DNA from: an archaeon GW2011_AR15
GTDB taxonomy: Archaea; Nanobdellota; Nanobdellia; Woesearchaeales; GW2011-AR15
Assembly (NCBI GenBank): GCA_000830295.1
Contig: CP010425.1
Coordinates: 320,001-384,000 of the forward strand
Reading direction: 5' to 3'
Length of the DNA stretch: 64,000 bases
A program made the position numbers and the translations under genes. The notes below the pieces were generated by a model, which was not told the DNA's origin, searched no databases, and saw only the letters and a list, made by a program, of their open reading frames with translations. The first letter of the stretch is position 1. The number at the start of each line of letters is the position of its first letter. Below are positions 20,326 to 22,732 of this stretch, in pieces.

Positions 20326-21540
20326 TTAAAAGTCTTCAACAGTCATCAGATTGACCTTTGTGCTCCTGCCCTTTACTTTGTTGTCCATTCCTATAAGGAA
20401 GTCAACTCTTGCTTTTTCTGCTGCTTCAAGAAGGTCCTTTTCTATTGCTCCGTCAAATATCACTGCATGGACGCCTGTATTGAGGGATTTCAGCGTTGTG
20501 TTCAGCTCTGAAATCGGGACTTTTCCGAGGATATTGAGCTTGCTGTCCAGCACATATGCCCCTCTTGTCCCTACAAGGTCTTCAAGCATCTCACTGAAGG
20601 TATCTTTCTCTGCCGTTGTTATTTTTGAATGAGTCTCTTTCTCTTCCGGCTTTGGCATCTGCCTGCCCTGCACCGGCTTTGGCCTTTCAATGGCCCTCCT
20701 TGGAGCTGATGCTGATTCCATCTTCATCTGCTCTGCAGATACCTTGCTCCTAAGGGCCTTATGTATCTCCTTCTTTGTCAGTTCCTCAACTTCCTTTCCG
20801 TCAGGGGCTCTTGCCACAAAATCAACCTCTGTAACGCTCATAAGCTCCTGCACTATGAGGTTTCCTCCCCTGTCTCCGTCAACAAAAGCTGTAAGCACCT
20901 TTGATTTCCCAAGCTCTATAATCTCAGGAGGGACTGATGTGCCGTTAAGCGCTATGACATTCTTGAATCCGTGCTTAAGAAGTGTCAGGACATCCGCCCT
21001 TCCTTCCACAACAACGACTTCCTCTGACTCATCGACTGACGGGCCAGCTGGCAGCCTGCCGCGGCCATACTCCTGTATTTCCATAACTCTTACAGAATAG
21101 GCCACTTCATCGCTCAGCTCCTGGGAATCAGGCATGGTCTCTTCCATCATCTGCCTTAGCAGGGTCTTGGCCCTGTCAATGACATGGTTTCTCTTTGATA
21201 TCCTTATGTCTTCTATCTTGCTGACTTCAATCTTGGCAGTGCAGGGGCCTATCCTCTGGATGACTTCCAAAGCAGCGCCGACTATTGCTGTCTCTGCCTT
21301 GTCAAGGCTTGAAGGTATCAGTATTGAGCCTACTGTCTTCCCTGATTTTGTCTCTGTGTCTACCTCTATCCTTCCTATCCTGCCTGATCTCTGAAGCTCT
21401 CTCAGTTCAAGCTCACTTCCGAGAAGCCCTTCTGTCTGGCCGAAGACAGCGCCTATTACGTCCGGCCTGTCTACAACGCCGTCTATGTTTATGCCTGCGT
21501 GAATGATATATTTAGCTGATACTGGGCTTATTTTTCCCAT
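20326..21540 (-). CDS. dnaG: archaeal DnaG (TOPRIM; exosome-associated)
   Basis: DVIGAVFGQTEGLLG, ELQRSGRIGRI, VVEGRADV, DGDRGG; GGAGG SD. Confidence 0.95.
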   Translation of the reverse strand: MGKISPVSAKYIIHAGINIDGVVDRPDVIGAVFGQTEGLLGSELELRELQRSGRIGRIEVDTETKSGKTVGSILIPSSLDKAETAIVGAALEVIQRIGPCTAKIEVSKIEDIRISKRNHVIDRAKTLLRQMMEETMPDSQELSDEVAYSVRVMEIQEYGRGRLPAGPSVDESEEVVVVEGRADVLTLLKHGFKNVIALNGTSVPPEIIELGKSKVLTAFVDGDRGGNLIVQELMSVTEVDFVARAPDGKEVEELTKKEIHKALRSKVSAEQMKMESASAPRRAIERPKPVQGRQMPKPEEKETHSKITTAEKDTFSEMLEDLVGTRGAYVLDSKLNILGKVPISELNTTLKSLNTGVHAVIFDGAIEKDLLEAAEKARVDFLIGMDNKVKGRSTKVNLMTVEDF

Positions 21541-21925
21541 TGTTATCTCCTCCTCTAAAGCCCGGCATAAGAAATATCGGTTATATCAGGTTCTTCAAAA
21601 ATCTCCTGCAATCTGCTGAATGAAATGATGAACATGATTGTTTCTCCTTATGCCTTGGCCATTGTAATGATTTGTTTAATAAGAACAAGCAATGTCTGCT
21701 TTACCCTAACTTACTTATGTGATGAATGTGATGAGTGTGAGCTTACTTGTCCTTATTCGTTGAGCGTAATAAAATATTGTCGCCCGAGACACTAACTCCC
21801 AGGTTCATAGCTTGTCTTTGACGTATGCTTCCCCGGGTACTCTCGTGACGGGCTGTATTACGCAAGAGTGTCTCAAACTCATTGAGTTCCCTACAAGGGA
21901 ATCTCATAAGAGGACCCATTTGTGT
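21541..21925 (-). ncRNA. putative structured RNA / long 5' leader of dnaG
   Basis: Several 7-10 bp helices including a crossing 8-bp pair (gcgtaata/tattacgc); G-U pairs valid only on the minus strand; TATA at ~21940-21960. Confidence 0.55.
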
Positions 21926-22024
21926 AATTAGGAAAAGGGATATAAAAAGGCTTTATAAAGGTTTGTGTCATAATATAAAAAATTGCAAAATTTTTAAATA
22001 TCCTATGATGTTCTTTCATCTGAA

Positions 22025-22732
22025 ATGAGTTTAATAGAGAATGTTCCAAGGCACCTTGGGATAATCATGGACGGGAACAGGAGATTTGCCAGAAGGCTGA
22101 CTGCAAAGCCCTGGAAAGGCCATGAATGGGGCGCAAAAAAACTTGCGTCTGTGCTTGAATGGTGCAGGGAATACGACATAAAAGAACTTACAGTCTATAC
22201 TTTTTCTATCCAGAACTTCAACAGGCCGAAAGAGGAGTTTGACTTCCTCATGGCTATTTTTGACAGGAATTTCGAGGAGCTGAAGAAAGACAAGAGGATA
22301 TACGAGAAGAGGATAAGGATAAATGTCATAGGAAGGCTCTGGATGTTCCCTGAAAGCATACAGAAACGAATGAAAGAGATAATGGAGCTAACAAAAGAGC
22401 ATGACCAGTATATTATAAATTTCGCAATGGCCTACGGCGGCAGGGAAGAGGTCATTGACGCTGCCATGAAGATAGCCAGGAAAGCTGTTTCAGGCGAGAT
22501 TAAGGTGGATGACATAAACGAGGAAGTTTTCAAAAACAGCCTTTACATCAAATCAGAGCCCGACCTGATAATAAGGACCGGCGGGGAAAAGAGAAGCTCT
22601 AATTTCCTTGCATTCCAGAGCGCTTATTCCGAGTATATTTTCATAGAAAAGATGTGGCCTGAGTTTGAGAAAGAGGATTTCGTGGCCTGTCTTGAGGAAT
22701 ATTCACAGAGAAAAAGGAGATTTGGGGTTTAG
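22025..22732 (+). CDS. uppS: cis-prenyltransferase (polyprenyl diphosphate synthase)
   Basis: HLGIIMDGNRR, FSIQNFNRP, YGGREE, PDLIIRTGGEKRSSNFL, RRFG. Confidence 0.95.
   Translation: MSLIENVPRHLGIIMDGNRRFARRLTAKPWKGHEWGAKKLASVLEWCREYDIKELTVYTFSIQNFNRPKEEFDFLMAIFDRNFEELKKDKRIYEKRIRINVIGRLWMFPESIQKRMKEIMELTKEHDQYIINFAMAYGGREEVIDAAMKIARKAVSGEIKVDDINEEVFKNSLYIKSEPDLIIRTGGEKRSSNFLAFQSAYSEYIFIEKMWPEFEKEDFVACLEEYSQRKRRFGV

Follow-up and report, generated by a model that had tools for sequence, protein, structure and literature searches.

A putative two-hairpin box H/ACA guide RNA upstream of dnaG in the archaeon GW2011_AR15, with predicted targets in helix 69 and the A-loop of 23S ribosomal RNA

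The intergenic gap in front of dnaG in the archaeon GW2011_AR15 (order Woesearchaeales; contig CP010425.1 of assembly GCA_000830295.1, positions 320,001 to 384,000, a stretch of 64,000 nucleotides (nt) referred to here as the window) carries on its minus strand, from about 21930 to about 21775, what is very probably the gene of a two-hairpin archaeal box H/ACA guide small RNA (sRNA) of about 155 nt. The element is assigned to this class because two kink-turn (K-turn) hairpins parted by ACA alone and followed by a terminal ACA represent the archaeal H/ACA layout, and the assignment draws on a covarying fold, the boxes, unique complementarity to 23S ribosomal RNA (rRNA), co-variation of guide and target, the genes of the partner proteins and homology to a described sRNA locus. 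An earlier reading of the sequence alone (the original prediction) had suggested an undescribed non-coding RNA, riboswitch or ribozyme at this place; the class is instead that of the box H/ACA guides, and a homologue has already been described in Nanoarchaeum equitans (PMC3491384).

The gap sequence is single copy in its own genome, and its core (21853-21777) shows 72-88% DNA identity in most of 60 relatives from about 40 families of the order (BLASTN), a degree of conservation that far exceeds what is expected of an ordinary leader. We collected and aligned 49 homologous loci of the order (G-numbers denote genomes, with G000 for GW2011_AR15, and L-numbers denote loci). The alignment displays a TATA-like block followed by two hairpins, the stems of which vary by paired substitutions and the internal loops of which are near-invariant. 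For the 27 homologues with both hairpins (alignment A1), the two-hairpin H/ACA structure is paired in 90.6% of cells, with compensatory change in 23 of 38 pairs, values not reached in any of 500 column shuffles; when the 3' partners were slid by 1-3 columns as a control, pairing fell to 28-43% of cells. Hairpin 2 alone was evaluated in 44 homologues, leaving aside five with apical insertions of 25-45 nt and L019, which is cut by a contig end; here, pairing extends to 93.6% of cells and compensation to 12 of 20 pairs (again 0/500 shuffles as high). Without a supplied structure, RNAalifold recovers the lower stem and part of the upper stem of hairpin 1 as well as the lower stem, extension, upper stem and apical hairpin of hairpin 2. 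The single-sequence fold energy is unremarkable (z = -1.84 for the minus and -1.58 for the plus strand), so that the sequence by itself would not prove a structured RNA.

Comparison of homologues upstream of dnaG had been suggested as a check on the original prediction, and the compensatory changes seen in the 27 sequences bear out a structured non-coding RNA on the minus strand, the strand that had been called. The individual helices fared unevenly. All quoted sequence strings are found on the minus strand, and three of the proposed pairings belong to the conserved fold: gag(a)ttccct/agggaactc forms the variable apical stem of hairpin 1, the upper stem of hairpin 2 is made up of cccggg/cctggg (4/5 pairs compensatory), and gtc-aaa-gac shows compensation in two of its three pairs. 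The 10-bp helix ttgagacact/agtgtctcgg, which had been thought to enclose the latter two, has no compensatory change in nine tested pairs; its strands can be paired in 79% of cells because both are conserved pocket sequences. Pairing of cata with tatg is possible in only 54% of cells, and one of five pairs is compensatory in tcttg/cgaga. The pseudoknot gcgtaata/tattacgc forms with 8/8 pairs in this genome only, the other 26 reaching 4-7/8; gcgtaat is instead conserved as the partner of attacacaa upstream (21928-21920), where eight of nine pairs are compensatory. Finally, the 3' arm of the supposed closing helix gtcct(ct)tat/ataaggac overlaps another conserved helix that lies in the downstream leader. 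The long-range helices and the pseudoknot are thus peculiar to this genome, and the fold consists of two independent hairpins, devoid of a pseudoknot or a long-range closing helix.

By sequence pattern, K-turns, the predicted binding sites of L7Ae, are present in both hairpins. The two GA motifs of the hairpin 1 K-turn are kept in 25 and 27 of the 27 sequences, together with a 3-nt bulge, and the K-turn of hairpin 2 follows the pattern (G)GAGC / GC-WAU-GA in most of the 44 homologues. Above this K-turn, the apical hairpin carries insertions of about 25-45 nt in L048, L049, L052, L053 and L055, which are themselves stem-loop-like (model matches of 105-130 nt). The pocket of hairpin 2 is strongly conserved, its 5' strand being GAGAGU-A in 39 of the 44 homologues and its 3' strand AGUUA in 34 and GGUUA in 8. 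The hinge box between the hairpins is ACA in 17, UCA in 6, CCA in 3 and AAA in 1 of the 27 sequences, conforming to NCA in 26. For Pyrococcus H/ACA RNAs, the stated rules are an upper stem (H2) of 5-6 bp and a distance of 14-15 nt between the ANA box and the target (PMC2377435). In hairpin 1, the ACA lies at 15 nt, and seven positions, two of them often unpaired, separate the pocket from the GA pairs; the upper stem of hairpin 2 comprises 5-6 Watson-Crick pairs below the K-turn. The departures from the Pyrococcus rules, which concern the ACA distance of hairpin 2 and the hinge box, appear mild. A TATA-like box is located 24-40 nt upstream in all 27 two-hairpin homologues, in agreement with the proposal that the RNA begins just after a TATA, even if such a box is weak evidence when taken alone because the background is AT-rich.

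The predicted target of hairpin 2 is helix 69 of 23S rRNA, which in this genome reads GGGAG-UAACUAUAA-CUCUC. Guide and target would form GUUA:UAAC and GAGAGU:ACUCUC duplexes on either side of four unpaired bases, UAUA. We take the two target uridines to be equivalent to U1915 and U1917 of E. coli. With UNUN left unpaired, helix 69 is the sole site in both strands of the 1.16-Mb genome that matches the hairpin 2 pocket in 10 of 10 Watson-Crick pairs; once G-U pairs are allowed, 72 sites reach 10/10 and 840 reach 9/10. In scans with two unpaired target bases, the A-loop of 23S rRNA (helix 92) was the top genome-wide match for hairpin 1, which would pair with GGGUGU and ACCCAU on either side of UC and leave a guide C beside the upper stem unpaired. 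Of 665,818 uridine positions, none but that in the A-loop gives 12/12 pairs with the hairpin 1 pocket, and 28 sites reach 11/12 or better. Its target uridine presumably corresponds to E. coli U2555 or U2554; in three of the 27 homologues, a C replaces the A atop the 3' guide, with the consequence that U2554 would stay unpaired.

Guide and target vary in concert for helix 69. Within the order of GW2011_AR15, the 3' strand of helix 69 is CUCUC in this genome and in 19 of 20 relatives with assembled 23S rRNA, and the guides of all 20 genomes are GAGAG (the motif was not displayed in the 23S piece examined for the twentieth relative, G057, nor in that of G179 from another order). Nine genomes of other orders with a readable helix 69 have UUCUC, and their guides are GAGAA; G107, likewise from another order, combines CUCUC with a GAGAG guide. 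Concordance thus amounts to 30/30 genomes at the one varying target position. Relatives are not independent events, so that the pattern stands for one or more switches between orders, with the G107 case in addition. Of 16 relatives in which the A-loop could be read, 12 have one that is identical over 17 nt; G006, readable in the 3' half only, is identical there, and the A-loop differs in G028, G034 and G036, all three of which have no recognisable hairpin 1.

The loop of helix 69 itself is not uniform, being UAACUGUAA in G107 and UAACUAUGA in G133 and G110. These variable bases lie within the four that remain unpaired in the proposed complex, at which Haloferax tolerates V and N. Directly past helix 69, the 23S rRNA of at least seven genomes (G051, G026, G044, G034, G153, G084 and G146) no longer follows the conserved ...CUCUUAAGGU/AGCGAAAU; flanking matches are found about 300-730 nt apart in three of the seven, which points to a possible intron or insertion located a few bases away from the guide target site. 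The 23S rRNA of G006 (L099) contains an insertion of about 35 nt after the A-loop hairpin (after ...CACCCAUUAAAAG).

A close counterpart in pairing mode is sR-h45 of Haloferax, whose 3' stem-loop uses one pocket to make both helix-69 pseudouridines (Hv 1940 and 1942), leaving UVUN unpaired and requiring the ACA box (PMC7075261). Both are two-hairpin archaeal H/ACA RNAs with K-turns, and the pairing scheme of hairpin 2 is alike; this likeness concerns architecture and pairing mode, not sequence homology. The two RNAs differ in that the hairpins of sR-h45 are connected by a 56-nt linker with an H box (AUAGCU), whereas ACA alone separates them here, and in that its 5' stem-loop guides Hv 2605, whereas hairpin 1 matches a different site, the A-loop. 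The base of this genome that we presume to be equivalent to Hv 2605 appears to be a C (GGGUUCAGAAC). In yeast, helix 69 is served by snR191, which uses one pocket for its two most conserved pseudouridines, and the A-loop by snR10. Eukaryotic guides of this kind, which are small nucleolar RNAs, have H and ACA boxes but no K-turn, and we claim no homology to them.

Among archaeal guides, Pyrococcus Pab40 / Pf7, the RNA represented by Rfam family HgcG (RF00064), and other Pyrococcus H/ACA sRNAs are also multi-hairpin RNAs with K-turns or K-loops and ANA boxes; their rRNA targets are concentrated in domains IV and V of 23S rRNA and motif 2 of Pab40 acts at 23S position 1932 (PMC2377435). The spacing rules derived there are obeyed in part by the element described here, which has two motifs instead of the three of Pab40. 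In a local scan, HgcG scored 8.5 bits on 21774-22009 (E = 9.3) versus a gathering score of 77, and the element is therefore not a member of this family. The nearest described locus is that of N. equitans, for which a single 159-nt H/ACA sRNA is reported that adjoins the tyrosyl-tRNA synthetase gene and is built of two K-turn hairpins parted by ACA alone (Randau 2012, PMC3491384). The element here has the same two extended K-turn hairpins with an ACA-only separator and no proper H box. The link is provided by G107, a genome of another order in the same class, with a single match to our covariance model 145 nt from its best tyrS-like gene, just as the N. equitans sRNA, the single H/ACA sRNA of a tiny genome, sits beside such a gene; the G107 homologue differs from the others in having no dnaG downstream. 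By position and architecture, the G107 match probably corresponds to the published N. equitans sRNA. On this basis, the family already has a described member that is supported by RNA-seq (PMC3491384).

In line with a guide function, the genome encodes Cbf5 (413.7 bits), Nop10 (61.1 bits) and L7Ae (102.8 bits), each above the respective cut-off. By analogy with characterised archaeal H/ACA ribonucleoproteins (RNPs), the sRNA would be transcribed from its own TATA box, L7Ae would bind the K-turns, and Cbf5-Nop10 would bind the ACA boxes and lower stems. Both strands of each pocket would then pair with 23S rRNA flanking the target uridine, and Cbf5 would convert this uridine to pseudouridine. Hairpin 2 would address the helix 69 loop via the UNUN arrangement, as for both helix-69 pseudouridines of Haloferax volcanii, and hairpin 1 would address the A-loop.

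Several points weigh against this assignment. Scans requiring just two unpaired target bases returned no rRNA target for hairpin 2, and the helix 69 site was found once four unpaired bases were permitted, a mode taken from PMC7075261, where the helix-69 guide of Haloferax itself is called atypical. For hairpin 1, the register with one unpaired guide C was fixed after the hit had been seen, three of the 27 homologues carry ACACAA in the 3' guide, which leaves only four pairs on that side, and the near-invariance of the A-loop in relatives means that no co-variation is demonstrable. The hinge box is non-ANA (UCA or CCA) in 9/27 homologues and therefore the weaker of the two boxes, and the distance from duplex to ACA in hairpin 2 is 16-17 nt, including a 2-nt bulge, versus the canonical 14-15 nt. 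Gar1 was not found in the genome with Pfam PF04410, a search that passed the cut-off in two of four archaeal controls; the protein is either too divergent for this model or missing. The strict linkage to dnaG described below is unexplained by guide-RNA function. Lastly, both the expression of the RNA in GW2011_AR15 and the actual pseudouridines are what we infer.

The main alternative is a cis-acting domain of the dnaG leader that controls dnaG, be it as riboswitch, protein-binding element or exosome/DnaG sensor, and has no guide role. Its attraction derives from the locus: dnaG is the immediate downstream neighbour, in the same orientation, in 47/49 loci of the order (the exceptions being one contig end and one locus without dnaG) and in 21/22 loci of other orders (the exception being G107), amounting to 68/71 loci overall, and the upstream gene varies. 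The spacer to dnaG contains further conserved motifs and a covarying helix, and runs of at least four T residues within 20 nt past the 3' ACA box occur in only 5/37 loci, which makes read-through into dnaG possible. To this extent the RNA does lie at the position of a dnaG leader, as had been predicted, but we found no evidence for sensing of DnaG, the exosome or a ligand. Against a cis-regulator, the invariant 'loop' nucleotides exactly complement helix 69 and the A-loop and, in 30 of 30 genomes, co-vary with the former. The K-turns and ACA boxes are an H/ACA signature, the G107 homologue occurs away from dnaG at a locus that matches a described stable sRNA, and no known riboswitch model scores. 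We therefore regard a purely cis-acting role as very unlikely. The guide RNA may be synthesised on its own or be excised from a transcript that includes dnaG.

Two further readings deserve almost no credence. One is a small protein gene: the 58-codon open reading frame (ORF) that had been noted at 21919-21743 (MGPLMRFPCRE...) does exist, is open and starts with ATG, and the G+C content of 0.49 in 21775-21924 versus 0.29-0.35 in the flanks is coding-like. If translated, it could explain the conservation as that of a protein, but the frame from the aligned ATG extends over 58 codons here only and is open for 0-51 codons in 26 homologues, with no more than 14 in 14 of them, so that the suspicion of a chance ORF holds. 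Moreover, the homologues accommodate loop insertions of many lengths, substitutions are paired across helices and not codon-periodic, the peptide has no Pfam family, and the ATG belongs to the guide strand AUGGGUC. The other, which we consider no more credible, is a new self-cleaving ribozyme, or some other catalytic RNA, acting in the processing of the dnaG transcript. The highly conserved internal-loop nucleotides and the location at what may be the 5' end of a long transcript would fit such an RNA, but guide sequences explain the conserved loops in full, the comparison leaves no conserved tertiary pairing or pseudoknot standing, and no ribozyme family scores.

Known RNA classes were likewise considered. 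In a run over the whole window at gathering score, Rfam returned tRNA-Trp alone, in agreement with ARAGORN, and no riboswitch or ribozyme model; nothing was found at the locus, consistent with the original statement that RNase P RNA, signal recognition particle (SRP) RNA, tRNA and riboswitches were not recognisable there. A permissive local scan up to E = 10 produced six chance-level matches (best E = 0.22), with no credible riboswitch or ribozyme and no Rfam H/ACA family other than HgcG among them. RNase P RNA and SRP RNA are both located elsewhere in the genome, above their cut-offs, and there is no tRNA or transfer-messenger RNA at the locus. An rRNA mimic acting on a ribosomal protein was rejected as well, since same-sense similarity to 16S and 23S rRNA is confined to chance words of 7-12 nt. 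Coordinates of all features are compiled in Table 1.

Table 1. Features of the guide RNA gene, its flanking genes and the dnaG leader (positions in the window)
Feature	Position	Strand	Remarks
TATA-like box cTTTATAAAg	21951-21960	minus	conserved alignment block; ~23-32 nt upstream of hairpin 1
Hairpin 1 (5' H/ACA motif)	21857-21928	minus	covariation and A-loop match
Hairpin 1 lower stem AUUACACAA / UUGCGUAAU	21928-21920 with 21865-21857	minus	8/9 pairs compensatory; found by RNAalifold
Hairpin 1 pocket	5' strand AUGGGUC 21919-21913; 3' strand ACACUC 21871-21866	minus	
Hairpin 1 upper stem	21912-21906 with 21878-21872	minus	5/7 pairs compensatory
Hairpin 1 K-turn	GA 21905-21904; bulge AAU 21883-21881; GA 21880-21879	minus	
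Hairpin 1 variable apical stem-loop	21903-21884	minus	
Hinge ACA between hairpins (box of hairpin 1)	21854-21856	minus	15 nt from top of 3' pocket strand
Hairpin 2 (3' H/ACA motif, universally conserved core)	21782-21853	minus	covariation and helix 69 match
Hairpin 2 lower stem GCCCGU / UCGGGC	21853-21848 with 21787-21782	minus	
Hairpin 2 extension	CAC 21847-21845 with GUG 21792-21790; 2-nt bulge 21789-21788	minus	
Hairpin 2 pocket	5' strand GAGAGUA 21844-21838; 3' strand AGUUA 21797-21793	minus	
Hairpin 2 upper stem CCCGGG/CCUGGG	21837-21832 with 21803-21798	minus	
Hairpin 2 K-turn strands	21831-21827 and 21811-21804	minus	
Hairpin 2 apical hairpin GUC-AAA-GAC	21822-21814	minus	
3' ACA box	21778-21780	minus	1 nt past hairpin 2 lower stem; ACA in 36/44 homologues; rest AAA, CCA, UCA or shifted
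Intergenic gap, 484 nt	21541-22024		between two divergent genes
dnaG (archaeal DnaG, Toprim protein, 404 aa)	20326-21540	minus	NCBIfam NF003108 'DNA primase DnaG', 481.3 bits (cut-off 300); Toprim domains; downstream neighbour, outside the RNA itself
Undecaprenyl-diphosphate-synthase-type prenyltransferase gene	22025-22732	plus	Pfam PF01255, 248.8 bits
Downstream leader (ACA box to dnaG)	21541-21777	minus	long-range helix, UCAU/UCAC-type repeats, second inverted repeat, Shine-Dalgarno-like GGAGG
Leader long-range helix AAGGACAAGUA / UUGCUUGUUCUU	21754-21744 with 21692-21681	minus	encloses UCAUCA/UUCAUCAC repeats
Second inverted repeat GCAUAAGGAG ... UUUCUUAUGCC	21554-21640	minus	brackets 26-codon ORF MFIISFSRLQEIFEEPDITDISYAGL

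To delineate the distribution of the RNA, a covariance model built from hairpin 2 (R1) was searched against 151 genomes of the phylum with a completeness of at least 95%, all labelled as belonging to the same order or class. R1 matches 141 of them, with one match in 140 genomes and two, the second being weak, in one. In other orders, the RNA consists of a single helix-69 hairpin with its own TATA box. The 5' hairpin is labile: it is absent in 21 dnaG-preceding loci of other orders, where the TATA box directly precedes the helix-69 hairpin, and in several families of the same order (e.g., L038 and L047) its place is taken by a hairpin whose pocket differs and which presumably has another target. 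Loci underlying this observation are L034, L036-L038, L040-L043, L045-L047, L050-L057 and L059, and L164-L183.

A conserved non-coding element missed by Rfam thus gains a name and a probable mechanism, with one copy per genome in nearly all sampled members of a large class of archaea with small genomes; a single H/ACA RNA appears to be all that these reduced genomes retain. The universally kept hairpin would serve the two most conserved ribosomal pseudouridines, those of helix 69, through a four-base-unpaired mode that has so far been shown experimentally in Haloferax. The box H/ACA pseudouridylation guide as a kind of RNA is already known, and so, judging by position and architecture, is the homologous N. 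equitans sRNA. Our own additions are modest and comprise the single-copy distribution across the class, the explicit assignment of helix 69 and the A-loop as predicted targets, the co-variation of guide and target at helix 69, the lineage-variable 5' hairpin and the unexplained dnaG linkage. The covariance model and alignments could serve as the seed of an Rfam family and help in annotating such genomes.

The near-invariant place before dnaG poses a small question of its own, namely that of co-expression of a guide RNA with a protein of RNA metabolism. DnaG is an RNA-binding partner of the exosome in other archaea. In the literature searched, no paper pairs an ACA sRNA with DnaG, and the position before dnaG is unreported there. 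A tentative idea, which we consider rather unlikely, is that the guide RNA is expressed together with dnaG as a single conserved unit throughout the class, in which the sRNA is the 5' module processed from a long structured dnaG leader and the RNP assembled there, or the processing event, couples DnaG production to ribosome modification and biogenesis. If true, the element would represent an H/ACA guide embedded in an mRNA that also has a cis-regulatory role.

The leader between ACA box and dnaG has features of its own. Across loci, it is about 100-240 nt long and itself conserved (L011-L059). Both arms of its long-range helix are present in 20/34 leaders, and among 15 sequences the core of this helix (AGAACAAGUA/UACUUGUUCU) is conserved in sequence and two pairs at the inner end covary. 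YCAY words (UCAU, UCAC) are 2.7-fold enriched in the 34 leaders, with 254 observed versus 95.6 expected. Antisense C/D-box sRNAs, conceivable from the TCATCA repeats that read TGATGA on the other strand, were dismissed, as inspection revealed no D boxes at the right spacing. The 26-codon ORF MFIISFSRLQEIFEEPDITDISYAGL follows an AAGGAG and stops 14 nt short of the dnaG start; it might encode a leader peptide or simply reflect in-frame reading of the repeats. ORFs of at least 15 codons occur in 23/34 leaders, often with an MFI, MII or MIL start, and only their ends recur. A leader peptide upstream of dnaG (the MFI... ORF) is unconvincing, given that only the first residues recur. The motif (A/G)GAACAAG follows the hairpin in other orders too.

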